From IMG/VR virus record IMGVR_UViG_3300045988_174509: 64,000 nt of DNA; one strand, given 5' to 3'. Numbering within the stretch: position 1 is the stretch's first letter; every line of letters starts with the position of its first letter. This document shows, one piece after another, positions 22,501 to 55,940 of this stretch. Position numbers and translations under genes: made by a program. The notes under the pieces are model-generated. The model made no database searches. It was not told the DNA's origin and saw nothing but the letters and a program-made list of their open reading frames with translations. Source of the stretch: a virus.

Positions 22501-22518
22501 ATCCTTTACAAGGACAGG

Positions 22519-22556
22519 CGGCTTGGTATCCTTCGGGGTATCAAGCCGTTTTTATT
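22519..22556 (+). terminator. rho-independent terminator, 13-bp stem with UUCG tetraloop and T5
   Basis: cggcttggtatcc-ttcg-gggtatcaagccg, then ttttt, immediately after the giant ORF stop. Confidence 0.6.
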
Positions 22557-24237: not shown

Positions 24238-24292
24238 GCCCTGATGATAGAGGCATGCCTAAAGAAAAGCAAGACGGAAAATGGGAAGCCTT

Positions 24293-27540: not shown

Positions 27541-27653
27541 ATTGTACTAATGGTTAATAACGTCAAGGAATCCGGGAATCTGGAATTCACGGAACCAGGA
27601 GGTCAAAAACTCCTTGGCTTGCATTAAGGTAAGTAACTTCATGATGATTTATG

Positions 27654-27666
27654 TTGAGGTTCTAAC
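27654..27666 (-). promoter_or_regulatory. conserved leftward motif instance (GTTAGAACCTCAA)
   Basis: Member of the recurring motif with consensus TTTAGAATCTCAAC (minus-strand sense). It lies 11 nt upstream of a possible 31-aa ORF start at 27642. Confidence 0.4.
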
Positions 27667-27679
27667 AAGTTCTAGTGGT

Positions 27680-28252: not shown

Positions 28253-28643
28253 GATTTTTAATGGCTGTTTTACGTTGAGATTCTAAAGACAGCATTTCTT
28301 TTACAAGTTGCCAGCAAGAAAACAGGTATTGAACTACCCTGTCCATCATCTTGACTGCTGATAAAAGAAGATGGCTTACAGATACATAAACGAAGAACAC
28401 GGCAAGCACATTTAAAAGCAGGGCCATTAGCTTGTCTTCGTTGATCAGGTGATGAATGCTAAACCCAAAAACACTTCCTTCAATGGCGGCTAGAATCCAG
28501 CACCATGATATCCATAATTCAAGAGTCTTGTGAAGGAAATCTCTGAGTTTCCCTGCCTTCAGGTACAGGCCAAGACAAGCGTTCGCCCGTTCGGGCAATG
28601 GAAATCTCAGAAGATACTTGCTCAGAAGTTTATGCGGTTTCAT
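28245..28643 (-). CDS. hypothetical membrane protein
   Basis: 132 aa with 2-3 hydrophobic helices. Its ATG is directly abutted by the conserved TTTAGAATCTCAAC motif. Confidence 0.4.
   Translation of the reverse strand: MKPHKLLSKYLLRFPLPERANACLGLYLKAGKLRDFLHKTLELWISWCWILAAIEGSVFGFSIHHLINEDKLMALLLNVLAVFFVYVSVSHLLLSAVKMMDRVVQYLFSCWQLVKEMLSLESQRKTAIKNHD
28275..28288 (-). promoter_or_regulatory. conserved leftward motif instance (CTTTAGAATCTCAA)
   Basis: Inside the 3' end of 28245..28643, 22 nt upstream of the ATG of 27680..28252. Confidence 0.4.
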
Positions 28644-28905
28644 GTTGAGATTCTAAAGGGGTTAAGCACACGTGGATATGCCGGGCGGTTCCCGGGGCTT
28701 TGAGCTCCAGCTCAAAGCCCCCTGCCAGTAGCTTGCGGTTTGCTTTCCGCAAGTCGGCAAGAAGGAACCTGCTGTTTTCTACCAGGATTTTTCTTCTCCC
28801 ATCAGAAAAAATTTCAATGGCCCCCATGGTGTGATGCGCCTGAAAGAATTCGTTTAGGATTTCTTTCACTTCCTGTTCTGTCAGTTTATTTGAATGGTAA
28901 AGCAT
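28630..28905 (-). CDS. hypothetical protein
   Basis: 91-aa ORF, ATG start. Confidence 0.35.
   Translation of the reverse strand: MLYHSNKLTEQEVKEILNEFFQAHHTMGAIEIFSDGRRKILVENSRFLLADLRKANRKLLAGGFELELKAPGTARHIHVCLTPLESQHETA
28645..28659 (-). promoter_or_regulatory. conserved leftward motif instance (CCTTTAGAATCTCAA-C-ATG)
   Basis: It abuts the ATG of 28245..28643. Confidence 0.45.
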
Positions 28906-29240
28906 GACTCTTTGATCATCTGTAGGGTTGGAATAATTTACAGGGGCTCATAGTGGTCCCTAAAATAGAACCGCCTGCCCTGAAAGAATCATTCAAAAGA
29001 TTATCCATGATCTGCTGGCTCTTGATAAAATTGATATGACTCCTTATCAACTTTTGGGACTCCATTGAAAGGATTCTTGAGCGTAGAATGTGGAAGTTCC
29101 CGGCTTAAATGGGTTTTTGGTATTCATGATTATGATTTCTTTCTATTTAGTATTGGTTAGCGCGGCGATCTTGCCGCATGTCTTCACTGTAGTAAACTGA
29201 TCTGTTTTTACAAGATATTTTTCAAAAAAATTTTCTTACG

Positions 29241-29255
29241 TTGAGCTTCTATAAG
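29241..29255 (-). promoter_or_regulatory. conserved leftward motif instance (CTTATAGAAGCTCAA)
   Basis: It lies 10 nt after the stop of 29266..30252, and begins a ~330 nt stretch containing only very small ORFs. Confidence 0.35.
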
Positions 29256-29265
29256 TTATGCAATT

Positions 29266-30252
29266 CTATTTCATGTAGAATTTGAATTTTGTCTCACCCT
29301 TTTCAGAATCTTCCGTCACTCGGATGCGCTTCAGAAGGAACGGGAAAACTTCGTTGCACTTGGCTTCCACCTTGTCGAGAATTTCCGTTGGAACTTCAGG
29401 CATTTCAGGACTGGGAGATTTCCAGACAAGATAGCCGTAATATTGTGTGAAGGGAACAAAGGAAGCACTTGCTCCAACTTCCTTTCCGAGCTCCTCGAAT
29501 ATTGCATTCACGTCCTGACTAAGCACAGAATAAAATTCCTGCATTTTTTCAAGGGCGTCATCCAAGCAAAGATTCTCTACTTTATGGAACACGTACTGGG
29601 AAAGGTTCCCCTTCTCATTTACCACAAGATTTTTATTCAGGGATCGCCACACACACACCTTATATTTTCCCGGTGCACTGTCTTCCATGTGCTGAACCGT
29701 AAGGAAGAAGGGAGCGGAAGGAATCCTGATTGCCAAGTCACTTTCCAGAATCCGGGAAGCATGAAGCCTTTCAATGGGAATCCGGGGAACAGAAGTCAGG
29801 GGACCAAGGGAGAGAACAATAGAAAGGTTCCGTTTATAATTGTTAAACTTCTCTCTTGGAGAATTTTCTTGGTAGAACTCTTCTATTTTTTCAATCTCTC
29901 CTTCCCGGGAGAAGAACGCAAGCACTCTTTCATGGTCATTTGTTATTTGAGCATGCGCCTTGCGTGTCTCGAGAGTTGGATTGAAACAATGCGATTCAAC
30001 CCATACCGAATATTCTCTTGGCTTTTTTAGCCGGAGAATGAGACGGATAGCTCTTTCATTAGGTTCAAACAAGCCATAGTAGCGAAGTGACAAGGTTTTC
30101 ATTTCTCCTTCCCGCGGATTTTTCCGCTTAAAGGTGACGCGGAACAACTTTCTAGGATTGGCTTCAGGGATTCCATAAGGCTTTACGCCGTTCTTCTCCC
30201 ATTTAACGCTGAAAGAAATATCCATGCCTTCGAGTAATGATTCAGTTTCCAT
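29266..30252 (-). CDS. hypothetical protein
   Basis: 328-aa ORF, ATG start. Confidence 0.45.
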   Translation of the reverse strand: METESLLEGMDISFSVKWEKNGVKPYGIPEANPRKLFRVTFKRKNPREGEMKTLSLRYYGLFEPNERAIRLILRLKKPREYSVWVESHCFNPTLETRKAHAQITNDHERVLAFFSREGEIEKIEEFYQENSPREKFNNYKRNLSIVLSLGPLTSVPRIPIERLHASRILESDLAIRIPSAPFFLTVQHMEDSAPGKYKVCVWRSLNKNLVVNEKGNLSQYVFHKVENLCLDDALEKMQEFYSVLSQDVNAIFEELGKEVGASASFVPFTQYYGYLVWKSPSPEMPEVPTEILDKVEAKCNEVFPFLLKRIRVTEDSEKGETKFKFYMK

Positions 30253-30292
30253 ATTATTTTTAGGTTCTATATATTAGAGGTTCTTTTATTTA

Positions 30293-30742
30293 TTAGCGTT
30301 CTTCTCTTTCAGTTTTGATCTTTATGCTACCTTCGGAAGGAATTTTAGCGATTCTAAACGCAAAATAATAGCCTTTATCCGCATCATGGTAAGAAAAGTA
30401 ATCCTCCAAGCTACTGGTGAAGACCTTTTCCATATTCTCCGTATGTAGCAGGGGGAGAATGCCCTCTCCTATATAAAACTGAAGAGATTGAACGCCTGCC
30501 ATTAAATCCGTTTCAGCTATCACCTGATCTTCAATCACTTTCCCGGTTCGTTCTTCAACAATTTTCCTTAAATTGCATTCAAGAAGATAGCCAAACCATT
30601 CCAAAGGATCAGTAAAATATTCATCCGTAGCCGTTTCATTGGCAAGCTTCAAGCAATAATCTCTTACATGCTCCGATTTGCTTTGCCTTGCCATGTCAAT
30701 CAGCTTCCTAATGGCGGCAAGCCTGTATTCATTTATGTTCAT
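30293..30742 (-). CDS. hypothetical protein
   Basis: 149-aa ORF with ATG start. It is preceded by the conserved leader and a 24-bp perfect palindrome. Confidence 0.4.
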   Translation of the reverse strand: MNINEYRLAAIRKLIDMARQSKSEHVRDYCLKLANETATDEYFTDPLEWFGYLLECNLRKIVEERTGKVIEDQVIAETDLMAGVQSLQFYIGEGILPLLHTENMEKVFTSSLEDYFSYHDADKGYYFAFRIAKIPSEGSIKIKTEREER

Positions 30743-30778
30743 TATATTTAGTCCCTTTCTACTTGTTTTTTGATTCCG

Positions 30779-30802
30779 GCGGGCAGGAAATTTCCTGCCC
30801 GC
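30779..30802. promoter_or_regulatory. 24-bp perfect palindrome GCGGGCAGGAAATTTCCTGCCCGC in 5' region of 30293..30742
   Basis: Seen directly in the sequence. It is flanked (minus sense) by the conserved leader ATCAAAAAACAAGTAGAAAG. Confidence 0.5.
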
Positions 30803-30804
30803 AT

Positions 30805-30819
30805 AGAGATTCTAAAAGG
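30805..30819 (-). promoter_or_regulatory. conserved leftward motif instance (CCTTTTAGAATCTCT)
   Basis: Immediately followed (minus sense) by the 24-bp palindrome 30779-30802, then the conserved leader and the ATG at 30742. Confidence 0.4.
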
Positions 30820-30856
30820 AAATGCGTGAGAAAATGCACTGAACTTAAAAACTCCT

Positions 30857-31036
30857 TCACAAAAGGCGGGCGTTATGCTCTACATACCATTCGGCAGGAT
30901 AAAGGTCCACACCTCCCCTGACTCCCGGATTCTGTGACTCCCGGAATCCCTGAAGCAGGGATACAAACATTTCTGGATCACTCATTTCGTGAGTCAATAC
31001 GGCGGGCGCGGCTTTTTCTTCTATACTAGTGTTCAT
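30857..31036 (-). CDS. hypothetical small protein
   Basis: The track ORF runs to 31081. The internal ATG 31036 reproduces the leader architecture (GTAGAAAG-N12-ATG) seen upstream of 30293..30742. Confidence 0.3.
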   Translation of the reverse strand: MNTSIEEKAAPAVLTHEMSDPEMFVSLLQGFRESQNPGVRGGVDLYPAEWYVEHNARLL

Positions 31037-31073
31037 TTTATGTCTTCTTTCTACTTGTTTTTTGTTTTTTGAT

Positions 31074-31089
31074 CCGCCCATGGGGGCGG
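31074..31089. promoter_or_regulatory. GC hairpin CCGCCC-ATGG-GGGCGG with the same conserved downstream leader
   Basis: Second copy of the hairpin plus (A)TCAAAAAACAAGTAGAAAG module, upstream of ATG 31036. Confidence 0.45.
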
Positions 31090-31160
31090 GGGCATGAATT
31101 TAGATTAGCTTAGTGATTGTATTGTACAATAAAAATAGTAAAGATTTTTGTCATACACGT

Positions 31161-31622
31161 TTACAAGTCATCGAACATGGCGGAAAGGCAGGCGTAATTC
31201 CTTGAGGGATAAAGGCATTCAAACCCTTGCAAGGGGTAGGTGATTTTGATTCCTTTGCAATATATGTTTGCACTGCACGACGGAATGTTCAGCATGCGCA
31301 ACTCCGAAAGAACGGAATTTTTAGCTTGCCTTGCGGCCATTTGCAAGGATGAATCTGAAAAACTGAAAGGGAACTCCCTGATAAATGACGTTTTGTATCC
31401 GGAGTTCTCCAATTCAATGATGATCACCAGCCGGAATTGCGCGCCTTTGGCGTCATGATACTCTAGCGGAAGAAACTCCCGGCAATTTTGTGTCATGTTC
31501 CACACGTCCAATGCTCCTCTATTCATAAGACTTTGAATCACGGAGGAAGGGGAACAGGAAGCAGGGAAAGACTTGGAACGGTGCTTTTCCTTTGTAATGT
31601 ATGCGTATTCAATAAGTTCCAT
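31161..31622 (-). CDS. hypothetical protein
   Basis: The track start is TTG 31643. The ATG at 31622 is directly abutted by the conserved motif. Confidence 0.4.
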   Translation of the reverse strand: MELIEYAYITKEKHRSKSFPASCSPSSVIQSLMNRGALDVWNMTQNCREFLPLEYHDAKGAQFRLVIIIELENSGYKTSFIREFPFSFSDSSLQMAARQAKNSVLSELRMLNIPSCSANIYCKGIKITYPLQGFECLYPSRNYACLSAMFDDL

Positions 31623-31625
31623 ATA

Positions 31626-31640
31626 TTGAGATTCTATAAT
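31626..31640 (-). promoter_or_regulatory. conserved leftward motif instance (ATTATAGAATCTCAA-TAT-ATG)
   Basis: It abuts ATG 31622 of 31161..31622. Confidence 0.45.
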
Positions 31641-32935
31641 CAAGATTGTTTCTTTGTAGACCGCCCCCTTGTATCAAACGCCGGGATATTTAATTTTCTC
31701 CTTGCTTTTCCGATAACTTGTATTGATTTGCCTGTTTTATTAGCGACTTCTTTATCAGTCATTGTGCCCAGCAGGGATTTAATGTATTCGTCCCCTTCTA
31801 TTGTTTCTTGCAAGCTTTTTTCCTCACGTAATGCCGGAACATTCAATTTCTGTCTAATTCTTCTTACTGCCTCGTCATCAATATTAAATTTTTCGGCTAT
31901 TACTCTATCATAAACTTTCCCAAGCATAGATAAGAGTTTTTTACGTTGGTCCGGTGAAAATCTTTCTAAAATGCTTTTACTGAAAGGCTTAATTTTGTTC
32001 TGTTCTCTAAATTTTTTAATTACATATACGCTGTACCCTGTTTTTTTTGCAATTTTTAAATCTGATACTCTTCCCAATAAATTAAGAATTATATCCTTGT
32101 CCGCATCCTTAATGGGAGCTGGAGCAATTTTTAATTTTCTACGGTTCCGCGCTACAACATTAAGCGATATTCCAAGCCTTTCAGCAATTTCGCTATCAGG
32201 AATTTTCCCAAGCATGGATAGCATTTCTTCGCGTTTCTCTTCGGGGATTTTAGTATCAGATAATGATAGAATGCCCATCTTTTTTCTAATAAGCGCAATT
32301 CCTGCCTTGGAATAACCGAATTTTTTAGCAATTTCATCATCCGGGGTCTTTCCAAGCATGTTAATTAACTCTTCGGGATACTCTTTTTTCTTGTGTGGTT
32401 TATTTGGGTCTCGTGGCTGACGGGGTTTACGCGGCCCCCTATATGACTTAATCCCTAATTTCTTTCTAAGGTAGGCTACTCTGGAATTTGAGTATCCAAA
32501 CTTCTTGGCACACTCCGAGTCAGGAATTTTTCCGAGCACTGCAATAAGCTCTTCATCGTGTTGGATGCGGATTGCTTCAGGGCTGCAATACTTTTTGATA
32601 CCTAATTTATAGCGTTCAGTCTGGACCGTGACGCGCGCTATTCCGAGTAGCTCGGCGATTTCCAGGTCAGGTTTTTTGCCCAACATGGACCGCATTTCTT
32701 CACGCTGTTCGTGAGAAAGAATGCGGTGAAACCTCTTTTCTCGGTATTTTTCATGCAATAACTCCATGAGCAATTGCATGTATTCAGGCGTGGGATGTGG
32801 TTTTTTAGTATTTAGCCACTTCCAAACAGCATCTTCCGTCACCCGCATCATCTGCGCGGCCCTTTTTACAGCTTGGGTAGGACTTGGGAGATTGTTGGCC
32901 GTTTGAAGCCAGTCGATAAATTCTTGTGCGGTCAT
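31640..32935 (-). CDS. tandem helix-turn-helix repeat DNA-binding protein (8 sigma-70 region 4/LuxR-like HTH modules)
   Basis: 431 aa. About 8 repeats of ~36-40 aa fit the pattern LxxLGKxPDxEIAxKxGxSxxxVxxxRxKLGI. Confidence 0.55.
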   Translation of the reverse strand: MTAQEFIDWLQTANNLPSPTQAVKRAAQMMRVTEDAVWKWLNTKKPHPTPEYMQLLMELLHEKYREKRFHRILSHEQREEMRSMLGKKPDLEIAELLGIARVTVQTERYKLGIKKYCSPEAIRIQHDEELIAVLGKIPDSECAKKFGYSNSRVAYLRKKLGIKSYRGPRKPRQPRDPNKPHKKKEYPEELINMLGKTPDDEIAKKFGYSKAGIALIRKKMGILSLSDTKIPEEKREEMLSMLGKIPDSEIAERLGISLNVVARNRRKLKIAPAPIKDADKDIILNLLGRVSDLKIAKKTGYSVYVIKKFREQNKIKPFSKSILERFSPDQRKKLLSMLGKVYDRVIAEKFNIDDEAVRRIRQKLNVPALREEKSLQETIEGDEYIKSLLGTMTDKEVANKTGKSIQVIGKARRKLNIPAFDTRGRSTKKQS

Positions 32936-32947
32936 GGTGAGAAAGGA

Positions 32948-32966
32948 GGGGCGGCAATGCCGCCCC
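32948..32966. promoter_or_regulatory. GC-rich 9-bp stem/3-nt loop hairpin between the acidic gene and the multi-HTH gene
   Basis: ggggcggca-atg-ccgcccc, 12 nt upstream of ATG 32935 on the minus strand. Confidence 0.4.
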
Positions 32967-32976
32967 TGGGGGTTAT

Positions 32977-33303
32977 TTAGTGAGCTTCAACGCGGGAAGC
33001 GTCCTGCGTCCAGTTGAGGTTTTCTCCTTCAATTTCTTCGCCCGTCATTTGTTCAAAGACCATGTAGATTTCAACCTTGTTCCCTTCTGCATCATAGCCG
33101 GGAGCAGACCATTCTTCCATATAACTGCCGTCTTCGTATTTGTCCGCATAGGAGCCAGGGAAAACCCTGTTGGTGTATTCCATCTGGCGCGCTGCATAGT
33201 AGGTCTTGCCTTCGAACTTGTAGCTGCCAAATTCACGTTCAAGAGCGGTCAGGTTGATTTCTTCTCCGTCTTCCGTGGTGATGATTTTGTTATCGTTCAT
33301 CAT
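32977..33303 (-). CDS. highly acidic small protein (first gene of leftward block)
   Basis: 108 aa with ~24 Asp/Glu against ~9 Lys/Arg. It is the first ORF after the origin-like region. Confidence 0.4.
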   Translation of the reverse strand: MMNDNKIITTEDGEEINLTALEREFGSYKFEGKTYYAARQMEYTNRVFPGSYADKYEDGSYMEEWSAPGYDAEGNKVEIYMVFEQMTGEEIEGENLNWTQDASRVEAH

Positions 33304-33356: not shown

Positions 33357-34377
33357 CATGATTTTTTGATAGCATTACGGAGGGTTCCGTTCAACCGATT
33401 TTTTGCAGGGAGCCGGCAAGTGATTTAAAATGAAAGGATTATAATTGTGTCATACAAGGTGTAAAAAAGTGTGAAAAGGTGCTTGCAATGTAAAAATCCG
33501 GCATTTGCGGCACAAAAATCCAGCGTCAAAATCAGGCATGGGGGAGTATCGTAAAAAGTACAATAAGCCATGAAGCCGGGAAACCCGGGTTCCGGGTTCC
33601 GGGTTTGGAGGATTAGGCAATAATTGAGGCAGGTGCAAAAGCAGGAATGATTCATAAAATTTTATGGCTGGTGTCCCATATTTGAGCCGGATTCCATAAA
33701 ATTTTATGGAACTTTGGACAGTTTCAGGGTGTCAGGTATAAAATTTTGTAAAAGCAGGGAGAGGCGGGTGCAGGGCGTCAGGGTAACTTAGAATCAGGGA
33801 GTCAGGGGATCAGTTTGGAGGATTAGGCAAGAATTTGAGAAGAAAGGAAGGCCCTTCTTTTCTTCTCATATCATCAACGTATCATGATATGTTGATATGT
33901 TATGATTCACAAGCAAGCCCGCAATTTATACAGGCGTATAAATATGCACCCCTGAACCCCTGATTCCGCCCTTCCCTGCACCCCGCTTCACACGTCAAAA
34001 AATACAATAACCCCCCTATTTCCGGCTATGGAAAAATTCAAACGTAACATAATGGATTGAATCTTAACGTCTAGCACGTTCATACTTCGCATAATATGTG
34101 TAATGCAAAATCGGAAGCACGATTCAGGCATAACAAGAAAATACATAAGAAGTTATGAAGGAAATTACCCTGAAATTGGAAGCCGATTTCCGCCATACGG
34201 GAGGTTTACAGGGCCAGGGGTTCAAGGTTAGAGTGGCTCAAAGGTTCAGGGTTCGAGCAACTCTAACCCGGAATCAGGAAACATACCACCACGGTTGAGG
34301 GGGCTCACGGGTTCAGCGAGTGGAGGTATAAATCTTTGGGTCGGGAATGCCCTGGAGGAACCATTTTTGGAGAAAGG

Positions 34378-34510
34378 GGGATGTATGGACCTAGAAGGCG
34401 GGTTTACCCCCAGTTGGGTACTCTGTACCGGACCTACCCCAAAACACAGTTTTAGGCGACCACCCTACATGAAAAAACCGTATTCTGGCATGAGCATGGT
34501 TCCCAGGCAT
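34378..34510. repeat. ~130-bp direct repeat, copy 1
   Basis: The last ~85 bp are near-identical to 34666-34750. Each copy contains AAAACaCAGTTTT and begins with ATGGACCTAGAAGGCGGGTTTACCC. Confidence 0.6.
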
Positions 34511-34617
34511 GCGTAAAGGGCGGATACCACCACGGGGGAAGGGGTGGAACTTGGGAACCGGAAAGGGCGGGATCAGGGGTTCAGGGGGTCGGAAAAAATC
34601 GGTGAAAACGGAAAAAT

Positions 34618-34750
34618 GGGAGGTATGGACCTAGAAGGCGGGTTTACCCTCTTTCCGCTACAGAGTACTGGACCGACCCCAAAACGCAGTTTTAGGCGAC
34701 CACCCTACATGAAAAAACCGTATTCTGGCATGAGCATGGTTCCCAGGCAT
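34618..34750. repeat. ~130-bp direct repeat, copy 2
   Basis: As copy 1. The middle ~30 bp segment is replaced while the flanks are identical. Confidence 0.6.
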
Positions 34751-34839
34751 CCTCGCGTGCGCATGCGCGTAGGCATGGGCATGGGCTGGCAGGGGTCGGC
34801 ATACATGTCGGAAGAAAGGTCGGAAAAAGGGTCGGCATG

Positions 34840-34930
34840 AGCGGGGCTCGCCTACGCATACGCGTACGTACGCGCACATGGCCCGCGTCACCCGCGCATG
34901 TGTGGGCATGTGCAGGCGTATGCGCTCGCC
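34840..34930. repeat. GC-rich alternating purine/pyrimidine tract (CGCATACGCGTACGTACGCGCACATG...)
   Basis: Seen directly in the sequence: CG/CA/TG dinucleotide alternation with imperfect inverted repeats. It immediately precedes the AT-rich block. Confidence 0.5.
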
Positions 34931-34959
34931 CGCCTCAGCGCGCCCAGGAAACTTTTATA

Positions 34960-35050
34960 ATTCAATATTATAATAAAACCCATATATATATATATAGTAT
35001 TTTTTAACTTTTTTATTTTTAGGGTTCTTGTATTGATTTTTAACGAGTTA
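34960..35050. repeat. AT-rich block with (AT)7 at 34982-34996 (DNA-unwinding-element-like)
   Basis: Seen directly in the sequence. Confidence 0.5.
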
Positions 35051-35152
35051 TGAAGACGGATTTTGTGAAGTGAAAAGTCAGAGCCCCTTTTCACATGCCT
35101 TGACAAAAATGGAAATATGTATGAATTTGGTCTTTTTTATACTTTAGAAATT

Positions 35153-35168
35153 AGAATGATTCTAAAAA
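35153..35168 (-). promoter_or_regulatory. degenerate motif instance (GTTTTTAGAATCATTC) pointing leftward into the origin-like region
   Basis: No convincing downstream ORF. It would direct transcription into the AT-rich/(AT)7 tract. Confidence 0.25.
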
Positions 35169-35187
35169 CTTTTACATACTTTTTTTA

Positions 35188-35324
35188 TCGACATTTTTAC
35201 GACATTTTTACGACGTTTTTTTGACCCCATTTTTGACCCCATTTTTGACCCCATTTTTGACCCCATTTTTGACCCCATTTTTGACCCCATTTTTGACCCC
35301 ATTTTTGACCCCATTTTTGACCCC
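35188..35324. repeat. phased A/T-tract tandem repeats: CGACATTTTTA x3 (11 bp) then TTGACCCCATTT x8.7 (12 bp)
   Basis: Perfect copies counted in sequence from 35221. The antisense 82-aa MGSK-repeat ORF is an artefact of this array. Confidence 0.7.
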
Positions 35325-35388
35325 CTGAATCCGTGATTCCGCCCTCCCGTTCCACCTCCATTTTTGACCCCCTGAATCCGTGATTCCG
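35314..35388. repeat. direct repeat TTTGACCCCCTGAATCCGTGATTCCG x2
   Basis: Two copies ~48 bp apart, just upstream of the primase-helicase start. Confidence 0.5.
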
Positions 35389-35483
35389 GATACCTCCGGA
35401 CCCCCGTCACCGGAAACCCCTTTTTATTTTTCTCTTGACAGGATTTCCGTCCGGATTATCCTGGCTCCACATTAATACATCCC

Positions 35484-38400
35484 ATGACACCCCTATATAT
35501 CGACGACATTCATATCTCTATTGCCGCCCCATCCGCCCCGCAGTGGCTCACTGCCATGGACGTAAACAAAAGGTTCTACCATGTCGGTCATTGCAATAAT
35601 GCCTTTAATGCGGGGCTGAAGGCTATTGCCCTTGGCTGGATGAAATTTGAGGACGCAGAAGGCTTTCCGCTCACTCCCGATTTGCGCAGATGCGGCTATA
35701 TGTGCGACGCCTATGCAATGGACAAGGGCGTGAAACTTCCCGCCCTCCTGCCTGATGCCTATATAGATAGTATTTCCAAATGGCGGGAAATCTCCCCCGA
35801 GGCGGGCATCCCCAAATCCGTGCTCCCAGCCTTCGTGCCGTCAGTCTCCTTCAATTACAAGTTCATTCGCAAATGGCAGAAGGACAACCAGGATGACCGG
35901 AAGAAGTACCTGAGCGCGAAAGCCTTGGCCGGACGCGATCCCCGGGCGTGGAGCCATACGGGCCTGTTCTGCATTGACATTGACGCCGGGCACGACGGAA
36001 ACCCTGAAGCCCCTGACGCCCTGTACGCCCAGGCCCATGCCAATGGCGCCTTCTCCCTGATGCCCGGATTCCTTTTTTCCTTTGCATCCCCGAATCAGGG
36101 AATCAAGCTGATGTTTAAAGTGGACCCGGTTCTGCTCGCGCTTCTCAATACCCCGGAAGGATGCGGAGATGCGGACCTGGAATCCCCGGAAGTATCGGGG
36201 GAAGCCCTCGCCCGGGTGCAGTCTTTGCGCGAGAAGAACCACGCCATATGCTTTTACGCTATCGCCGCGATGGTTTCCCGCCATACCGGGCTTGCCGTGG
36301 ATTTATCCTGCTCCGATCCCTGCCGCCTCCAGTTCATGTTCCGGGCCCATGCCTCCCGGTATGAGCTCAATCCCTGTCTCCTTGATTCCGAAGTCCCGGA
36401 TTCCCTGCTTCCTGGGTTCAGCATCGACGGAGCCGATGCATGGAGGGAGTATGAGGAGACAGCCGCCCGCCGCGGAGCCGGAGGCTCCGCTGTGCAACCC
36501 CGGAATTTTGAGCCCGGAAAAGACAATAAGCCCGACAGTATTTTGAGGTTTGCCGACTGGCTCAAATCCAGGGGGTGGCTGAAGGAAGCCCAGCACGTTT
36601 TGGACATGACTCCCGGACCCCGGGGCTATTATTCGTTCTGCCTCCAGTGCCGGGATGTAAGCAGTACGCCTTCCGGACCTCGTGACTTGCTCCTGTGGCT
36701 TGACAGGGATTCCCCCGGGAGGTTCGGCTTCAAGTGCCTGCATGAATCCTGCCAGAGCCGGGCCAAGGTCAAGTACCCGTTCTGGTATCTGGCAAAGCTC
36801 TACCATGAGGAGCAGGAGGCGTTGAAGATTGCCCATGAGGCATCCAATTCCTATCAGGTGCCTGAGCCCATCCGCAAGTTCATCCGCACCAGAAGCGAGC
36901 TCTCCGAGCACAAGATCATCATTGGGAACATCGGGATGGTCCAGTCCTCCTTCAAGACTCCCGATGCCCTGCCGAACCTGTTCGAGTGGGATGAGAAGAC
37001 CGGAGCCCTGCTTACTACGGCCCTGAATGTGTCGGGCTATGTGCGCCACTGCATGGGATTGTATCCCGTATATAACAAGGACCTGTGCTGTAACGAGTTC
37101 ATTTCTCCGGATACGGGCATGTGCTTCCCGTTTGACGCGGTGCGCAAGGCCGTCCTCGGCTACTTCATGACCCGGTGCAACAAGGACGTGTCCAAGCAGT
37201 TTCTTTTTACCTCCCTGCATGAGGCCCAGGGCCTTTCCTATTCGCCGCTGTTTGCGCTGGGGTACTGGGAGGAGTGGGACGGAGTTCCCCGGGTGGACCA
37301 GTATATCGACCTGCTGGAGTGGGACCCGGCCCACCAGCCGCCTAAAATCTTAAAGGAGGATGGCACGCCCATGTCGGGGCAGGAGTGGAAGCGGCATGCC
37401 CTGCGCTCCTGGCTGGTGAATTGCTGGGAGCGCACCGTCTGCTCGGTGATCGGCTCGGACAAGGTGCCGACCTTCGGTGGCCGCCCCTCGCACCTGATGC
37501 CGGAAAACAAGATGATCATCCTCTGCTCGGAGACCCAGGGGGTGGGCAAGACCCAGTGGGTGAAGGGGCTGGTGGGGAGCAAGGCCCAGGAGTCGCTGGT
37601 CATTGCCGATAAGCTGGAGCAGAGCAAGGACCATGACAAGATTTCGGCCATCAAGCCGATCTTTTTCCTTGACGAGATGGAGAAGACTACGAAGAACGAG
37701 GAGATGAACTCGCATCTCAAGATGGTGCTGACCCGGAGCCACATTGACATTCGTGATCCCTATGAGAAGGACATCATGCACAGGAAGGTGGTGACTTCCT
37801 TCATCGGGGCGACCAACGAGCCAAAGCCTTTGAGTGATGCCGATGGAAGCCGCAGGCTTGTGTTGCTTTATGTGAGGAGGCCCGCCGATAAGATGGGCAG
37901 TGTAGGCAATTGCCCCGAGCATGTGAAGGAGATGCAGTCGCTCAATGTCGCCCAGTTCTGGGCCGAGATCAAGTACCTGTCCGAAACGGCCAAGCCCGGG
38001 GAGTATGCGCTGACGCCCCAGGAGACCAATCTTGTGCATTACAACCAGACCACGGCTTTGGAGAACGGGGAGTTCAACCACCTCGTATCCTACCTCCGCT
38101 TCATTCCCTCAAACTACCCGGCGGCGGACGGGAAACAGCTCCGCAAGATGATCAACGGGGCGTACAACGATCCGGCCAATATCATCAATTCGGTCCGCAG
38201 GTATCTCGGGGAGCGGGAGATCAAGGTCTCCTGGCGCGGGAGCAAGCAGTTCCGCCAGCATCTTCTGGCCCAGGTGCCCGAGGGGTGCTCTCCCACCTAC
38301 TATACAGGCAAGCGCGGGTCTCCCCGTGTCGCCCTGTACCCGGTTATGCTTGAATCCGAGTTCGAGCTTCTGGCCTCCGATACAGCCAGGAAATCCTGGG

Positions 38401-38570
38401 CTCGGGACAACCCGGAGGAGGCGGCGAAGTATTACAAGCGGATCAAGTTCGGCCTGGGAGATGGTTCCCTGGTTGACGTGGACCCGGCGCAGGCCGAGAA
38501 GCTGGACATCTACAAGCCCTACTATGACCAGTATATGGAGGACAGTCTGGAAAATGAGGACGAGGAGTAA
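35484..38570 (+). CDS. primase-helicase (AEP-type primase/polymerase fused to D5-like SF3 helicase)
   Basis: N-terminal LFCIDIDAGHDG (AEP hhhDhD motif), Cys/His cluster CLQCRD...CLHESC, Walker A ETQGVGKT and Walker B-like VTSFIGATNE. 1,028 aa. Confidence 0.7.
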   Translation: MTPLYIDDIHISIAAPSAPQWLTAMDVNKRFYHVGHCNNAFNAGLKAIALGWMKFEDAEGFPLTPDLRRCGYMCDAYAMDKGVKLPALLPDAYIDSISKWREISPEAGIPKSVLPAFVPSVSFNYKFIRKWQKDNQDDRKKYLSAKALAGRDPRAWSHTGLFCIDIDAGHDGNPEAPDALYAQAHANGAFSLMPGFLFSFASPNQGIKLMFKVDPVLLALLNTPEGCGDADLESPEVSGEALARVQSLREKNHAICFYAIAAMVSRHTGLAVDLSCSDPCRLQFMFRAHASRYELNPCLLDSEVPDSLLPGFSIDGADAWREYEETAARRGAGGSAVQPRNFEPGKDNKPDSILRFADWLKSRGWLKEAQHVLDMTPGPRGYYSFCLQCRDVSSTPSGPRDLLLWLDRDSPGRFGFKCLHESCQSRAKVKYPFWYLAKLYHEEQEALKIAHEASNSYQVPEPIRKFIRTRSELSEHKIIIGNIGMVQSSFKTPDALPNLFEWDEKTGALLTTALNVSGYVRHCMGLYPVYNKDLCCNEFISPDTGMCFPFDAVRKAVLGYFMTRCNKDVSKQFLFTSLHEAQGLSYSPLFALGYWEEWDGVPRVDQYIDLLEWDPAHQPPKILKEDGTPMSGQEWKRHALRSWLVNCWERTVCSVIGSDKVPTFGGRPSHLMPENKMIILCSETQGVGKTQWVKGLVGSKAQESLVIADKLEQSKDHDKISAIKPIFFLDEMEKTTKNEEMNSHLKMVLTRSHIDIRDPYEKDIMHRKVVTSFIGATNEPKPLSDADGSRRLVLLYVRRPADKMGSVGNCPEHVKEMQSLNVAQFWAEIKYLSETAKPGEYALTPQETNLVHYNQTTALENGEFNHLVSYLRFIPSNYPAADGKQLRKMINGAYNDPANIINSVRRYLGEREIKVSWRGSKQFRQHLLAQVPEGCSPTYYTGKRGSPRVALYPVMLESEFELLASDTARKSWARDNPEEAAKYYKRIKFGLGDGSLVDVDPAQAEKLDIYKPYYDQYMEDSLENEDEE

Positions 38571-38578
38571 AAAATCTC

Positions 38579-38606
38579 TTGACATTTTCCCCTGATATTG
38601 TAGGAT
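38579..38606 (+). promoter_or_regulatory. sigma70-like promoter TTGACA-N16-TAGGAT
   Basis: It starts 9 nt after the primase-helicase stop. It drives a short ORF-less transcript that ends at terminator 38666-38706. Confidence 0.4.
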
Positions 38607-38611
38607 TCTCC

Positions 38612-38706
38612 TGATTTGAGGCTTTTCGGTGTCGGCTTCATGTCTTCATTCTATGTATTGGGAAAGCCCCGGAGCAGAAAGATTTGCTCCGGGGCTTTTT
38701 TTTTTT
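38612..38706 (+). ncRNA. candidate small RNA 1 (promoter 38579-38606 to terminator 38666-38706), ~95 nt
   Basis: A promoter-terminator unit with no ORF of 60 aa or more. Confidence 0.3.
38666..38706 (+). terminator. rho-independent terminator (perfect 11-bp GC stem, T11)
   Basis: gccccggagca-gaaagattt-gctccggggc followed by 11 T. Confidence 0.7.
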
Positions 38707-38707
38707 G

Positions 38708-38737
38708 TTGACAATCTCCCTCCCCTGATGCTATGTT
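38708..38737 (+). promoter_or_regulatory. sigma70-like promoter TTGACA-N15-TGcTATGTT
   Basis: It starts 2 nt after the T-run of the preceding terminator. Confidence 0.45.
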
Positions 38738-38742
38738 TCACG

Positions 38743-38889
38743 TTGTCGGGGCTCCGGGATGCAGGGAATCATGGACGATGAAAGACTCGTAGGAACTTGG
38801 ATTCCCTTTCCCACCCGCCCCCAGCCCAAATCGCTCCCATGGTAGAGAACCCGCATGGTTAAACGCGCCATGCGGGTTCTTTTTATTTT
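38743..38889 (+). ncRNA. candidate small RNA 2 (~145 nt)
   Basis: Promoter 38708-38737 to terminator 38847-38889. Only a possible 24-aa micro-ORF inside. Confidence 0.3.
38847..38889 (+). terminator. rho-independent terminator (12-bp stem, T-run)
   Basis: gaacccgcatgg-ttaaacgcg-ccatgcgggttc then ttttatttt. Confidence 0.65.
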
Positions 38890-38895
38890 CTTCTC

Positions 38896-38924
38896 TTGAC
38901 ATTCCGCCCCAAATGTGATAGATA
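38896..38924 (+). promoter_or_regulatory. sigma70-like promoter TTGACA-N14-TGaTAGATA
   Basis: It follows terminator 38847-38889. Confidence 0.4.
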
Positions 38925-38930
38925 TGGCGC

Positions 38931-39147
38931 ATGCAGTTGGGGGAAGTCCTTCCCGGGCTTCCGTCCGAGCACGCCTTCAGGTGTGCCGCCCAAAGGCTAG
39001 GAACCTGATACAGTAATGGCACTGTGGATGTTTATTCATTTCAGGTTTCGTCTCCTTTCTACTCCCGACATTTGCTGTACTGCTCAATCAGTTTTTGTTG
39101 TATTAGCATAAGAATCTCCCCTGGTTCATTCCGGGGGAGATTTTTTT
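38931..39147 (+). ncRNA. candidate small RNA 3 (~215 nt)
   Basis: Promoter 38896-38924 to terminator 39115-39147. The 73-aa track ORF that crosses the terminator is unlikely to be real. Confidence 0.25.
39115..39147 (+). terminator. rho-independent terminator (7-8 bp stem, T7)
   Basis: tctcccc-tggttcattcc-ggggaga then ttttttt. Confidence 0.55.
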
Positions 39148-39183
39148 CTTTACTTATTAGCTCCATTTGGCATATTCCAGCAC

Positions 39184-39579
39184 ATGAAGTATTTAAAAAC
39201 TGGATCTACTCGCAGGGTTTTTCTCATAGGGAGGCATGCTTTTAAGGTTCCCTTTGCATGGCCTGGAACCGGGAATGCTTTTTGTGGAATCTTCAGGCGG
39301 CTTCGTGATGGCCTCTTTGCAAATTGTTGTGAGATGGTTTACTCCGGAACTAGTTTCTCAGGAAATGGCGCAGGTTTTGTTTGCAATCCCGTTGTGTTTG
39401 CTCTCCCCTGGGGCCTTCTTGTAGTTCAGCGCAGGGCATTGCCTATTGATAATGATACCTTTGATACTCTTGAGGAAGCTTGTGCGTGGAGCCCTGTGGA
39501 GTATAAGCCGGATAGTTTTGGCTTTGTGGATGGAGAGCTTGTGGCTGTAGATTATGGGGCTGGAAGTTTTTATGATTGA
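39184..39579 (+). CDS. hypothetical protein
   Basis: 131-aa ORF with ATG start, directly after terminator 39115-39147. Confidence 0.35.
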   Translation: MKYLKTGSTRRVFLIGRHAFKVPFAWPGTGNAFCGIFRRLRDGLFANCCEMVYSGTSFSGNGAGFVCNPVVFALPWGLLVVQRRALPIDNDTFDTLEEACAWSPVEYKPDSFGFVDGELVAVDYGAGSFYD

Positions 39580-46013: not shown

Positions 46014-46048
46014 GGGAGTCCTCTTTGGGTGAGAGGACTCCCTTTTTT
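46014..46048 (+). terminator. terminator-like hairpin ending 1 nt before the RuvC-like start codon
   Basis: gggagtcctc-tttgggt-gagaggactccc, then tttttt, then ATG. It overlaps a TTGACG-N17-TATAGT promoter. Confidence 0.5.
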
Positions 46049-46606: not shown

Positions 46607-48444
46607 TGGCTGTTTCTCGACAGTTTATACGCTATGGCCGGAAGTGGCCGATGGATGCCTCAGAGATCGACATCGAACTCTGGTGCTTCAAGTATGCGTG
46701 GCCTAAGGAAAAGGGGGGCCTTGGCCGCTATGGTCATGCAGTCAAATGTATTGATCTCCTTTGGAATTATAAGGGCAGTCCCTCCCCGGTAATTTGGACT
46801 CCCTGGGTGGAGTATGGCCTGAGGCATGCCTGTGAGAACAATGTCTGCATCATGGGCGGCGGTTCTTCCTGCGGGAAGTCCATGATCATGGCCTTGATGG
46901 CCCTTCTTTTCTATTTGTCTGACCCCAGGCATACCATGTGCCTTATCACTTCGACCACGATTGAAGGTGCCAAGAAGCGTATCTTCAAGGATGTCAAGAG
47001 ATTTTGGCGTTCATATTTTCCTGGGAAGCTGGTGGATGGCCAGGGTAAGATCAAGGGTATCAATGAGGAGGATGAGATTGATGATTCCCAGGGCATTGTC
47101 ATTATTCCCTGCGCCAATGTAGGAGACCCTACAAGCCGATTCATCGGGATCAAGGCCCCCAACATGCACGTTTTCTATGATGAGCTTTCCGAGCTTCCCA
47201 TTGAGCTTGTTGATGTTTGGAGGACCAACCTGAACACGAACGCTATTGATACTCCTCCGACACTCATGGCGGCTTCCAACCCCAAGAGCCGGACTGATGC
47301 GTTCGGTATTATGGCGATGCCCAAGGACGGTTGGAATAGCGTGGACATTTTCACCGAGGAGACCTGGAGGACCCAGGATGGGATTTATATCCGGTTTGAC
47401 AATACCAAGAATCCTCGTATTGCTTTAAACCGGGAAGACTGGTCCTTCTACGTCAGCCGACCCATTATTGAAGAAGCCATTCGTCAGTATGGGGCAGACT
47501 CCGCTTTCATCCAGCGATTCCATAAAGCCACGTTTTCTGACGACATCGAAGAGGGAGCCCTGCTTTCTGAAGCCGAAATTTATGCGGCAGGGGCGGACGG
47601 CATGCCCGTATTTGGCCCCAAGCCCATCATTAAGATTGCGAGTCTTGACCCGGCCTATACCAATGGCGGGGACCAGTCTGTCGTCCGTTGCGCCAAGGTG
47701 GGCTATGATCTGAATGACAATCTGTGCATGTTCGTTTATGCACGCTTTGCTCTCAAGTCCACCAAGAACAAGGAGGATTTAAAATCACGCAACTTCGATA
47801 TTGCCAAGCAGGTTTATGATATTCTTCAGCAGGAAGAGATTTCTCCGGACAACTTTGTTGTGGATATTACTGGCGGCGCGGCGTTTGCCGACATTCTGGC
47901 CTCGTATCTAGGCCCAAAATTTGAGGCGATCAGTTTTTCCGGGAACGCCAGTAGCACGCCCATTTCAGCCTCTACTCCTGAACTGGCTTGCAAGATGTAT
48001 GCCAACAAGGTCTCCGAGCTCTGGGGCGTGATGAAGCTGGCGATTGCTTCCCAGCAGTTGTATGGCCTGGATTCCAAGGACATCCTGGAAATGAAGTCCA
48101 GGCTTTACACCTCGGAAAACGGAAAGATCAAGGTAGAGCCAAAGAGATTGATGAAGAAGAGAATTCGTCATTCTCCCGACGATGCTGACGCTATCGCTCT
48201 TCTGGTGCATATGGTGAGAAAGAAGTTCGGCATGGCTTTTGCCAGGATGCCGGACAAGGCCCCTACGGCCCAGAATAGGCCCAGATATAAATTTGAGCTT
48301 GACAGCAAAGGGAACCCCATTCTACACTCCCGGGATATTAAGGCTTACCTGCATGATCCCGATCAGGCGGCCAAACAGCCGCCGCCTGAGGTTCGTACTT
48401 TTCAACGTCAGGTACAGAAGCTGGGGTCGTTGCTCTGGAAGTAA
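46606..48444 (+). CDS. terminase large subunit
   Basis: Walker A IMGGGSSCGKS, Walker B VFYDELSEL, and C-terminal nuclease-like acidic residues (ASLDPAY, VVDITGG, SPDDADA). 612 aa. The TAATG overlap with RuvC is visible in sequence. Confidence 0.7.
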   Translation: MAVSRQFIRYGRKWPMDASEIDIELWCFKYAWPKEKGGLGRYGHAVKCIDLLWNYKGSPSPVIWTPWVEYGLRHACENNVCIMGGGSSCGKSMIMALMALLFYLSDPRHTMCLITSTTIEGAKKRIFKDVKRFWRSYFPGKLVDGQGKIKGINEEDEIDDSQGIVIIPCANVGDPTSRFIGIKAPNMHVFYDELSELPIELVDVWRTNLNTNAIDTPPTLMAASNPKSRTDAFGIMAMPKDGWNSVDIFTEETWRTQDGIYIRFDNTKNPRIALNREDWSFYVSRPIIEEAIRQYGADSAFIQRFHKATFSDDIEEGALLSEAEIYAAGADGMPVFGPKPIIKIASLDPAYTNGGDQSVVRCAKVGYDLNDNLCMFVYARFALKSTKNKEDLKSRNFDIAKQVYDILQQEEISPDNFVVDITGGAAFADILASYLGPKFEAISFSGNASSTPISASTPELACKMYANKVSELWGVMKLAIASQQLYGLDSKDILEMKSRLYTSENGKIKVEPKRLMKKRIRHSPDDADAIALLVHMVRKKFGMAFARMPDKAPTAQNRPRYKFELDSKGNPILHSRDIKAYLHDPDQAAKQPPPEVRTFQRQVQKLGSLLWK

Positions 48445-55914: not shown

Positions 55915-55940
55915 AAAGTGTTGACAGCACTCTAAAAAAA

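Follow-up and report, generated by a model that had tools for sequence, protein, structure and literature searches.

Does the interval between the primase-helicase gene, on its left, and the DNA-polymerase genes, on its right, carry genes for small RNAs in the genome of an uncultivated human-gut phage? A preliminary description of the 64,000-nt stretch of DNA analysed here (the window) had placed three consecutive promoter-terminator units in this interval, at 38571-39183, and had proposed that they specify independent non-coding RNAs. We recovered all three units at these coordinates, each made of a TTGACA-N16-18-TAnnnT promoter and a terminator 60-220 nt downstream (Table 1). As described, the promoters follow closely on the preceding terminator, the -35 hexamers of P2 and P3 starting 1-14 nt after its T-run, and the sole sense ORF of 60 aa or more (39024-39245, 73 aa) crosses T3. 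The predicted transcripts of about 94 nt (U1), 146 nt (U2) and 217 nt (U3) agree with the species of ~90, ~145 and ~215 nt anticipated earlier. The three RNA bodies have no repeats in common other than the promoter motif TCTCTTGACATT. No integrase was detected in the phage, which is probably virulent.

Table 1. Features of the cassette and of its borders, in window coordinates.
Feature	Coordinates	Strand	Description	Basis or remark
Primase-helicase gene	35484..38570	+	VapE/DUF5906 domain; left neighbour	no terminator between gene and T1
P1	38579..38606	+	TTGACA 38579-38584, 16-nt spacer, TAGGAT 38601-38606	motif and relatives
U1 RNA body	38613..38659	+	5' hairpin 38613-38644, then unpaired UCUUCAUUCUAUGUAUU	predicted fold
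T1	38660..38706	+	19-pair stem and 11-T run; hairpin 38660-38701	putative terminator of U1 and of the primase mRNA
P2	38708..38737	+	TTGACA 38708-38713, 18-nt spacer, TG-extended TGcTATGTT (TATGTT 38732-38737)	motif and relatives
U2 RNA body	38744..38843	+	long imperfect hairpin, apex UGGACGAUGAAAGAnUCGUAGGAAC at 38772-38796, unpaired tail with UCCAURG	six variants folded
T2	38844..38889	+	16-pair stem and T-run; hairpin 38844-38882	hairpin/T-run scan
P3	38896..38924	+	TTGACA 38896-38901, 17-nt spacer, TGaTAGATA (-10 38919-38924)	motif and relatives
U3 RNA body	38931..39109	+	multi-helix: 5' hairpin GGGGGAAGUCCUUCCCGGGCUUCC, second hairpin, variable hairpin ~39001-39045, CUCCUUUCUA at 39052-39061	predicted fold
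T3	39110..39148	+	15-pair stem and T-run; hairpin 39110-39145	hairpin/T-run scan
131-aa ORF	39184..39579	+	phrog_4301, function unknown	outside cassette; variable insertion between T3 and next promoter
P4	39576..39603	+	TTGACA, 16 nt, TAGGTT	serves downstream replication genes (39613 onward); right edge of cassette

The TTGACA hexamer occurs 40 times on the + strand of the window, mostly within genes, against about 15 expected, and a single hexamer is therefore weak evidence. What speaks for promoters is the combination: hexamer, -10 element, T-rich tract upstream, intergenic site and conservation in relatives. P1, whose -35 begins 8 nt past the primase stop codon, is present in all relatives of the window clade, with an invariant TTGACA and a nearly invariant -10. 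P2 and P3 carry TGn extended -10 elements, and their hexamers are invariant around differing spacers in L004, L041, L043, L044 and L047. P3, which a consensus scanner missed because its -10 hexamer has a final A, is kept in all window-clade relatives and is similar to the promoter of UB, a unit of the distant clade. Each terminator's T-run also provides the following promoter with its A/T-rich upstream tract. No promoter was found on the minus strand. In Bacteroidota, genes typically lack Shine-Dalgarno sequences and promoters differ from TTGACA/TATAAT. Shine-Dalgarno sequences are depleted in the phage as well, with GGAG or GAGG in a single one of 56 start regions, whereas 10% of random 15-mers contain one or the other; since its genes resemble those of Bacteroidota in this respect, host recognition of the predicted promoters is not certain.

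The search for terminators covered both strands of the whole 64-kb window and required a stem of 9 or more pairs with a T-run behind it. Three of the seven strong candidates lie within this 600-nt interval. Five pairs of T1 are altered on both sides among relatives and 97.6% of the cells are paired, a result equalled by 0 of 500 shuffles. Compensatory pairs are also seen in T2. Over the cassette as a whole, the covariation comes from at most six distinct sequences, and part of it is whole-segment replacement and not stepwise compensation. Terminator loops are flipped too, that of T1 in L004 and L014 and that of T2 in L003. With a T-run and a hairpin that is kept whatever its sequence, T1-T3 match intrinsic (Rho-independent) terminators as judged from sequence. 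T1 is the sole terminator of the primase-helicase mRNA, so that U1 could come both from P1 and from the 3' end of that mRNA. On the right, P4 is kept in all relatives. The 131-aa ORF that precedes it, for which no promoter of its own was recognised, is missing from L011, L014, L041 and L045-L047, in which T3 adjoins the next promoter.

The cassette is kept at the same site in about 10 distinct relatives from gut metagenomes. It lies directly 3' of the primase stop in L003, L004, L010, L011, L014 and L041-L047; different units occupy this place in L005/L006 and in L007, the latter with one additional unit and a 367-aa gene, and L008 has no cassette at all. U3 is present in every window-clade relative. 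U2 is missing from L042, and an unrelated promoter-hairpin-terminator unit replaces it in L011. At least four further unit types were seen in relatives. Intact promoter-to-terminator modules are gained, lost and swapped among related phages, as at an accessory hot spot.

Conservation is unevenly distributed within the units. Among window-clade relatives, the four-fold sites of the primase gene are 0.74-0.90 identical and the unit stems and terminators 0.64-0.87. The U1 body is 91-100% identical (primase four-fold sites there, 74-90%). In U2, the apex is 96-100% identical and the stems 64-85%; the stem has even been swapped wholesale between relatives, CGGGAG/CUCCCG against GCAGGCUCG/CGAGCCUGC, with hairpin and apex retained. 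The 5' part of U3 is 0.89-0.97 identical, its 5' hairpin GGGGGAAGUCCUUCCCGGGCUUCC being invariant and CUCCUUUCUA conserved. Substitutions in U3 are wobble-compatible or fall in loops, as do the insertions, including one of 10 nt in a hairpin loop. In the distant clade, L005 and L007 share 97.7% identity in UB, against 72% in nucleotides and 51% at four-fold sites in their primases. The identity of the cores could partly stem from recent recombination rather than from purifying selection.

RNA folding and covariance-model searches had been suggested in the preliminary description. Folded without its terminator, the U3 body reaches -62.3 kcal/mol on the + strand (z -4.0) against -46 kcal/mol on the - strand (z -0.57). 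The U1 and U2 bodies, also without terminators, are no more stable than shuffles (z -1.8 and 0.2). Rfam 15 gave zero matches over the whole window at gathering thresholds. Permissive thresholds gave just sub-threshold matches driven by the terminator hairpins, and no tRNA or tmRNA gene was found in the window. No DNA match to the query was obtained in INPHARED phages, PLSDB plasmids or E. coli genomes. Exact-pattern scans (cores of U1, U3 and U2 in IMG/VR, U2 core in GTDB) recovered only two known relatives; the 22 other matches to the U1 17-mer were dismissed as chance, their flanks not being similar, and GTDB genomes contain no exact copy of the U2 apex. These searches, as run, found no homologue of the units beyond this phage family. 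A prophage or host sought in GTDB genomes via the primase was not found either, and the proteins had only remote matches among cultured phages, from mixed hosts.

Between clades, the search from U3 to UB by nhmmer ranks the syntenic units top with E values of just 0.09-0.23, and the U1 covariance model reaches E ~0.02 against UA of L005 and L007, mainly via terminator and promoter and out of register in L005. Orthology of the units between clades is therefore plausible at most. The sole stretch common to U3 and UB is CUCCUUUCU.

The conserved segments, predicted to be unpaired, often contain UUCAU, which is complementary to AUGAA; TTCAT is the commonest 5-mer over eight unit families (8 against 2.3 expected, family-wise P ~0.03). 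Duplex energies against the 56 phage start regions were not different from those of shuffled RNAs, and blastn-short complementarity within the window gave matches of at most 10 nt, at chance level. A 9-nt match between U1 and the start of the gene at 39613 (AUGAAGACA) was rejected as a target, the match being weakened and uncompensated in L042 and L043. Type I toxin-antitoxin modules were also discarded: minus-strand micro-ORFs behind an AAGGAG-like motif give unrelated, non-hydrophobic peptides when the window is compared with L005. A 13-nt inverted repeat flanking the cassette proved to be an A-run/T-run coincidence.

Our preferred reading, that the units are transcribed independently into non-coding RNAs acting in trans, has a probability of about 0.6 in our estimate; that they are non-coding RNA genes with some function is distinctly likely. 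The reading as independent non-coding RNAs put forward earlier gains from the conserved hexamers with variable spacers, the compensated stems, the conserved cores, the broken ORFs described below, the strand-specificity of U3 and the exchange of whole modules. What the analysis shows directly is how the cassette is built, how conservation is distributed over it, that no coding capacity is conserved and that structure is strand-specific; accumulation of the RNAs and their action in trans we infer. The cassette would thus comprise three separate and mutually unrelated non-coding RNA genes, each probably transcribed by the host sigma-70-type RNA polymerase. Their promoters belong to the same class as those of the flanking primase and polymerase operons, and expression would therefore probably be early in infection. 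Each transcript would stop at its own strong intrinsic terminator. Most likely, conserved unpaired segments would then base-pair with host or phage mRNAs at their translation-initiation regions, the candidate segments being UCUUCAUUCUAUGUAUU in U1, the apical loop and the UCCAURG tail in U2, and CUCCUUUCUA in U3. Pairing specifically at start-codon regions is a tentative proposal, to which we give somewhat less than even odds.

Other explanations have to be weighed against this reading. If the units encoded micro-proteins, these would be the 28-aa ORF at 38759-38845, the 25-aa ORF at 38931-39008 or the invariant 4-codon ORF of the U2 apex (AUG AAA GAY UCG UAG). Such ORFs are present, the sole variable base of the apex is a third codon position, and a missing ribosome-binding site is no argument against translation in a phage that does not use Shine-Dalgarno sequences; the ATG of U3 is the predicted transcription start, so that its mRNA would be leaderless. 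However, the shorter sense ORFs of the interval (28, 25 and 31 aa) are not conserved, and the sense ORFs of the units are all broken in relatives by indels or start-codon loss, with peptides that diverge after a few residues. The U2 ATG is replaced by AGT, CTG or TTG and its frame diverges, the 25-aa and 31-aa ORFs of U3 are frameshifted by 1-, 2- and 10-nt indels with the RNA folds retained, U1 has no conserved ORF (its ORFs end after 4 codons in L011), and matching ORFs are absent from the distant-clade units; we regard a coding function as highly improbable. We hold the same view of a part in a replication origin, with the transcripts as primers or activators of replication, or the hairpins as single-strand initiation signals for the primase-helicase. 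Transcription-activated origins are known in other phages and the site between the primase-helicase and DNA polymerase genes would suit one, but 34950-35324, upstream of the primase gene, is a much better candidate, holding 8.9 copies of a 12-nt iteron together with a (TA)n tract and repeats of 11 nt. Neither iterons nor an A+T-rich stretch occurs in 38500-39250, the structure of U3 relies on G-U pairs and on one strand only, and L008 does without the cassette entirely; an origin within the cassette was rejected in favour of the iterons upstream. An action in cis, either by a terminator/promoter stack insulating the primase from the polymerase operon or by put-like bodies giving read-through, appears very unlikely. 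Insulation takes one terminator and one promoter, not three bodies of 50-180 nt conserved above coding DNA; in half of the relatives T3 lies within a few nt of P4, so that read-through would serve nothing; and the units are gained and lost as whole modules. On the other side, T1 is the only terminator available to the primase mRNA and P4 restarts transcription past T3, two stable hairpins open U3 right after the predicted start site, and the 131-aa ORF past T3, without a recognisable promoter, would need read-through.

The promoters and terminators could also be real and the transcripts functionless by-products, for example leftovers of module shuffling at the hot spot. The locus is indeed prone to indels (the 131-aa ORF, the 367-aa gene of L007, the loss or replacement of U2), terminator loops flip among near-identical relatives, and neither a known family in Rfam nor a target among the phage start regions was found. 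In two clades the cores are conserved much more strongly than four-fold sites, and this, with the compensated hairpins and the strand-specific structure of U3, makes a functionless by-product decidedly unlikely. A less remote but still unlikely explanation has the RNAs expressed but binding proteins, as decoys or mimics, instead of pairing with mRNAs: U3 and UB would be copies of the 16S rRNA 3' tail, and U2 would present its GGA motifs to a CsrA-like protein. The U2 apex is aptamer-like, a conserved 25-nt loop atop a freely covarying stem, and holds two GGA motifs 19 nt apart; however, these are the only two conserved GGA motifs in U2. With the 16S tail, which we take to be ...UCACCUCCUUUCUA-3', the match is 10/10 in the U3 of the window, 11/11 in L004 and 13/14 in L041 and L047, over just 10-14 nt and spotted post hoc (P 0.005-0.03 against shuffles). 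The 14-nt 16S-like string of L041 and L047 also occurs in the sequences of L043 and L044. The restriction of the U3-UB similarity to CUCCUUUCU also speaks for a decoy, as does the failure to find an mRNA target among the 56 start regions or by complementarity within the window. Against it, the Rfam SSU rRNA model has no match to the window, and part of the CUCCUUUCUA/CUCCUUUCU motif pairs with an upstream AAAGG in the consensus fold of U3. In one version, U3, and UB in the distant clade, would be anti-Shine-Dalgarno mimics, early abundant RNAs displaying (C)CUCCUUUCUA or, in several relatives, UCGCCUCCUUUCUA and soaking up Shine-Dalgarno-led host mRNAs; being depleted in Shine-Dalgarno sequences, the phage mRNAs would escape the mimic and keep their access to ribosomes. 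In a variant, U3/UB may be a decoy for a host factor or a defence nuclease with specificity for the 16S 3' end. We regard the anti-Shine-Dalgarno mimic as a long shot; if true, it would amount to an RNA-only shut-off of host translation, and a functional 16S-tail resemblance would point to a new phage way of biasing translation.

Under the preferred reading as trans-acting RNAs, how does the cassette compare with known systems? Phage small RNAs are known mostly in a few temperate phages of model bacteria, and to our knowledge very few have been described in virulent or uncultivated gut phages. The locus offers three well-delimited candidate RNA genes with comparative support, together with natural presence, absence and replacement variants for experiments. 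From the exchange of whole units beside replication genes it would seem that accessory "morons" can be non-coding RNAs as well as protein genes. Counter-defence genes typically come and go as modules, and the units resemble Racr RNA anti-CRISPRs and other RNA decoys in being small, promoter-driven non-coding units at a variable early accessory locus. Unlike with Racr, no resemblance to a CRISPR repeat was noticed in the units. Bacteria have tandem small RNA genes too, such as LhrC1-5 of Listeria, PrrF1/2 of Pseudomonas and OmrA/B of E. coli. The back-to-back arrangement with individual promoters and terminators is the same here; those genes are paralogous copies, whereas the present units share the promoter motif alone and are exchanged independently. 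As with the put RNAs of HK022 and other antiterminator RNAs that act in cis, structured RNA lies just past an early phage promoter and before terminators. Unlike in HK022, a terminator is at once followed by a new promoter, and downstream genes therefore need no read-through in most relatives.

Trans-acting small RNAs of phages and prophages include lambda PreS, OOP, P22 sar, DicF, StxS and AgvB/AsxR, of which PreS adjusts host replication genes to the benefit of the phage (PMC12197685). The present units share with them a length of 50-220 nt, an own promoter and intrinsic terminator, an intergenic position and the lack of an ORF, and we propose that they likewise pair by an unpaired segment. 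They differ in showing no sequence or Rfam relationship to them, in being three unrelated units stacked head to tail, and in belonging to an uncultivated gut phage without a detected integrase rather than, as in most of those cases, to temperate phages of Enterobacteria. Virulent phages also make abundant small RNAs of unknown function, sRNA1 and sRNA2 of PAK_P3 and the band C and D RNAs of T4 (PMC4933390). In both cases several small non-coding transcripts come from neighbouring intergenic regions, here of a probably virulent phage. The PAK_P3 and T4 RNAs were seen by RNA-seq or on gels and are late or tRNA-linked, whereas the present transcripts are predicted and have promoters of the early/replication class. 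An 11-nt stretch of PAK_P3 sRNA2 is also found in the T-psi-C loop of host tRNAs, and its authors proposed that it could bind and block bacterial ribosomes and so repress translation (PMC4933390). For PAK_P3 sRNA2 the resemblance is to tRNA, for U3 to the 16S 3' tail. As read here, the locus adds a further case to the regulatory RNAs encoded by phages, a kind of system that is already known.

Three promoter-terminator units (U1, U2 and U3, with predicted promoters P1-P3 and terminators T1-T3) lie on the + strand in the 613 nt that separate the primase-helicase gene from the next ORF, back to back as in the preliminary description. The -35 box of P1 begins 8 nt past the primase stop codon, so that the primase mRNA, too, would have T1 as its sole terminator. 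Those of P2 and P3 follow the preceding T-run after 1-14 nt, which bears out the tight promoter-behind-terminator spacing noticed earlier, and the predicted RNAs of ~94, ~146 and ~217 nt agree with the expected products of ~90, ~145 and ~215 nt. TTGACA alone is frequent in the window (40 copies on the + strand, most intragenic). Strong terminators are scarce: scanning both strands gave 7, of which 3 lie within the cassette. Promoters of the same class also stand ahead of the primase gene (at 35435) and, as P4, ahead of the replication genes downstream. The three bodies have no repeat in common except the promoter motif TCTCTTGACATT, indicating that the units are not paralogues.

Features of the cassette locus, the origin-like region and other parts of the window
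Feature	Position	Strand	Description
ORF-poor stretch	33370-35430		2 kb, directly upstream of primase-helicase gene
Direct repeat	34380-34505, 34620-34745		~120 nt
(TA)n tract	near 34980
11-nt repeats	35182-35220		x 3.5
12-nt iterons	35218-35324		TTTTTGACCCCA x 8.9
Primase-helicase gene	35484-38570	+	VapE/DUF5906 domains
P1	TTGACA at 38579	+	predicted promoter; spacer 16 nt, TAGGAT
U1 body	38613-38659	+
T1	38660-38701	+	19-pair stem, then long T-run
P2	TTGACA at 38708	+	predicted promoter; spacer 18 nt, TGcTATGTT
U2 body	38744-38843	+
T2	38844-38882	+	16-pair stem, then long T-run
P3	TTGACA at 38896	+	predicted promoter; spacer 17 nt, TGaTAGATA
U3 body	38931-39109	+
T3	39110-39145	+	15-pair stem, then long T-run
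131-aa ORF	39184-39579	+	phrog_4301, function unassigned
P4	39576-39603	+	TTGACA, 16 nt, TAGGTT
Other strong terminators	62904-62960, 46014-46042, 55937-55979, 22516-22551

Outside the cassette, the terminator at 62904-62935 is followed by TTTTTTTGTTGACAATC, a 16-nt identity with the T1/P2 junction; the terminator-then-promoter layout thus recurs there. At 46991-47005 (- strand), antisense within the terminase large-subunit gene, 15 nt repeat the P1 upstream/-35 motif (AAAATCTCTTGACAT); this copy could be an antisense promoter or due to chance.

The window comes from human-gut metagenomes and represents the ~64-70 kb genome of an uncultivated phage, whose relationship to cultured phages is remote. 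The window contains no tRNA genes, and searching it against Rfam matched no family. GGAG or GAGG occurs at -18 to -4 of only 1 of 56 gene starts, compared with 10% of random 15-mers, which argues that translation is independent of Shine-Dalgarno sequences; the leaders are A-rich and G-poor. The genes thus lack and even avoid this signal, yet the predicted promoters are TTGACA/TAnnnT-like. One 3407-aa ORF with a TTG start takes up 10 kb (12277-22500, +) and presumably encodes a very large structural or tail protein. A block of ~15 leftward genes lies at 23165-33303 (- strand), and a leftward operon is headed by a predicted near-consensus promoter, TTTACA-16-TATAAT (33465-33438, - strand). Ten proteins of this block were searched against Pfam without a match, and the one of them also compared with PHROGs (29266-30252) matched nothing there; another protein of the block, of 431 aa (31640-32935), has several helix-turn-helix matches. 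A virulent lifestyle is possible, since no integrase was seen.

Relatives (~10 distinct) were retrieved with the primase and a 197-aa protein encoded beside the polymerase gene. The spacer is indeed conserved: the cassette directly follows the primase stop codon in all members of the window clade. Its composition varies. U1, U2 and U3 are present in the window, L003, L004/L010, L014, L041 and L043-L047; L042 has U1 and U3 only, and L011 carries an unrelated promoter-hairpin-terminator unit between them. In the distant clade (primase 62-64% identical in amino acids), L005/L006 have other units, UA and UB, L007 has UA, a 367-aa gene, UC and UB, and L008 has no cassette. Between T3 and P4, the 131-aa ORF is an insertion that some phages have and others lack, and neither a promoter nor a ribosome-binding site could be recognised for it; roughly half of the relatives are without it, their T3 adjoining P4, and in L043 it appears disrupted (only a 76-aa product called). 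This makes the locus a hot spot at which whole promoter-to-terminator modules, and occasionally protein genes, are exchanged. The replication module of L005, one of the distant relatives, also holds a TnpB/IS605 OrfB-type gene (16594-17790; Cas12f-like TNB domain) that is absent from the others.

As a neutral yardstick we used the four-fold-degenerate sites of the primase gene, at which relatives are 74-90% identical to the window. Identity reaches 91-100% in the U1 body, 96-100% in the 25-nt U2 apex and 89-97% in the 5' part of U3, and is 64-87% in stems, terminators and one variable hairpin. Promoter hexamers are unchanged while spacers drift. Between L005 and L007, UB is 97.7% identical from promoter to terminator; for their primases the nucleotide identity is 72%, and that at four-fold sites 51%.

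Folds are retained as the sequence changes. In T1, 5 pairs have changed on both sides with 97.6% of cells paired, more than in any of the 500 shuffles or any slid control; T2 also shows compensatory pairs. Some phages have CGGGAG/CUCCCG as the middle U2 stem, others GCAGGCUCG/CGAGCCUGC, and all six U2 variants are predicted to form the same long hairpin with the invariant cap UGGACGAUGAAAGAnUCGUAGGAAC. In the U3 consensus fold, substitutions are wobble-compatible or in loops, the loop of a hairpin accommodates a 10-nt insertion, and one of the hairpin domains has been swapped with its closing stem retained. Without its terminator the U3 body reaches -62.3 kcal/mol when folded (z -4.0, 0/200 shuffles), against only -46 kcal/mol (z -0.57) for its reverse complement, which assigns the structure to the transcript of the + strand; taken by themselves, the bodies of U1 and U2 show no exceptional stability compared with shuffles (z -1.8 and 0.2). 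The loops of T1 (38677-38684; L004, L014) and T2 (38859-38867; L003) are exact reverse complements in relatives 94-99% identical elsewhere (AGAAAGATTT versus AAATCTTTCT; TTAAACGCG versus CGCGTTTAA). Judged by sequence, these are small hairpin flip inversions, and the terminator loop sequence is thus free.

Duplex energies of the units with all 56 phage start regions equalled those of shuffled RNAs, and complementary matches within the window did not exceed 10 nt, so that no target emerged. A pairing of U1 with the first codons of gene 39613 (9-nt match) was rejected, as the match weakens in L042 and L043 with no compensating change. Across the eight unit families, UUCAU ranks first among 5-mers (8 versus 2.3 expected; family-wise P ~0.03); it is complementary to AUGAA. 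The sole stretch common to U3 and UB, CUCCUUUCU(A), is identical to the 16S rRNA 3' tail of Bacillus-type sequences; several relatives carry CCUCCUUUCUA or UCGCCUCCUUUCUA, the latter matching this tail at 13/14 positions. Both features point tentatively to targets in translation-initiation regions. The 16S resemblance, short and noticed post hoc, is a lead only: the stretch is partly paired in the U3 consensus fold and the Rfam rRNA model did not support it. That U3 mimics an anti-Shine-Dalgarno sequence has a low probability and would be of high interest if true.

The units might instead encode micro-proteins. Since the phage does not use Shine-Dalgarno sequences, small ORFs were judged by conservation, which weakens this explanation: the 28-aa ORF of U2 loses its ATG in relatives (AGT, CTG, TTG) and its C-terminal half shifts frame, in U3, indels of 1, 2 and 10 nt disrupt the frame of the ORFs at the start site (25 aa) and farther along (31 aa), U1 ORFs meet a stop after four codons in L011, and the micro-ORFs on the minus strand show no conservation from one clade to the other. 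Four codons in the U2 apex, AUG AAA GAY UCG UAG, are invariant and may be translated. An origin role for the cassette is weakened too, as the likely replication origin is the ORF-poor stretch ahead of the primase gene, with its repeats and GC-rich GCATG-type tracts, and the cassette has neither iteron-type repeats nor a (TA)n tract. In several independent assemblies, the contigs of relatives break off inside the repeats of that stretch, 94-200 nt before the primase ATG. In both clades the origin-like region also contains CATGAAGCCGGGAA (33569-33583; L008 ~690-705, minus strand), whose 10-nt complementarity to the 3' arm of the hairpin that opens the U1 body (CGGCUUCAUG) is of chance length and is not maintained in L042 and L043.

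Conservation, compensation, broken ORFs and the strand-specific U3 fold support the small-RNA cassette proposed at the outset. We consider U1, U2 and U3 functional non-coding RNA genes with a probability of about 0.8; they would be three independent, early genes making up a modular cassette. Regulation in trans is the somewhat favoured mode of action, and specific pairing at start-codon regions is a tentative suggestion. Transcripts that are by-products, control of transcription in cis, and a protein or ribosome decoy are weakened alternatives. The suggested Rfam covariance search of the cassette matched no family, and exact-pattern scans of IMG/VR for the U1, U2 and U3 cores and of GTDB genomes for the U2 core, together with DNA comparisons with INPHARED, PLSDB and E. 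coli genomes, gave nothing beyond chance hits outside this phage lineage. The units match no known family and are lineage-restricted, yet phage-encoded small RNAs with their own promoter and terminator are an established kind of element (PMC12197685, PMC4933390); U1, U2 and U3 would thus be new RNAs of an already known kind.
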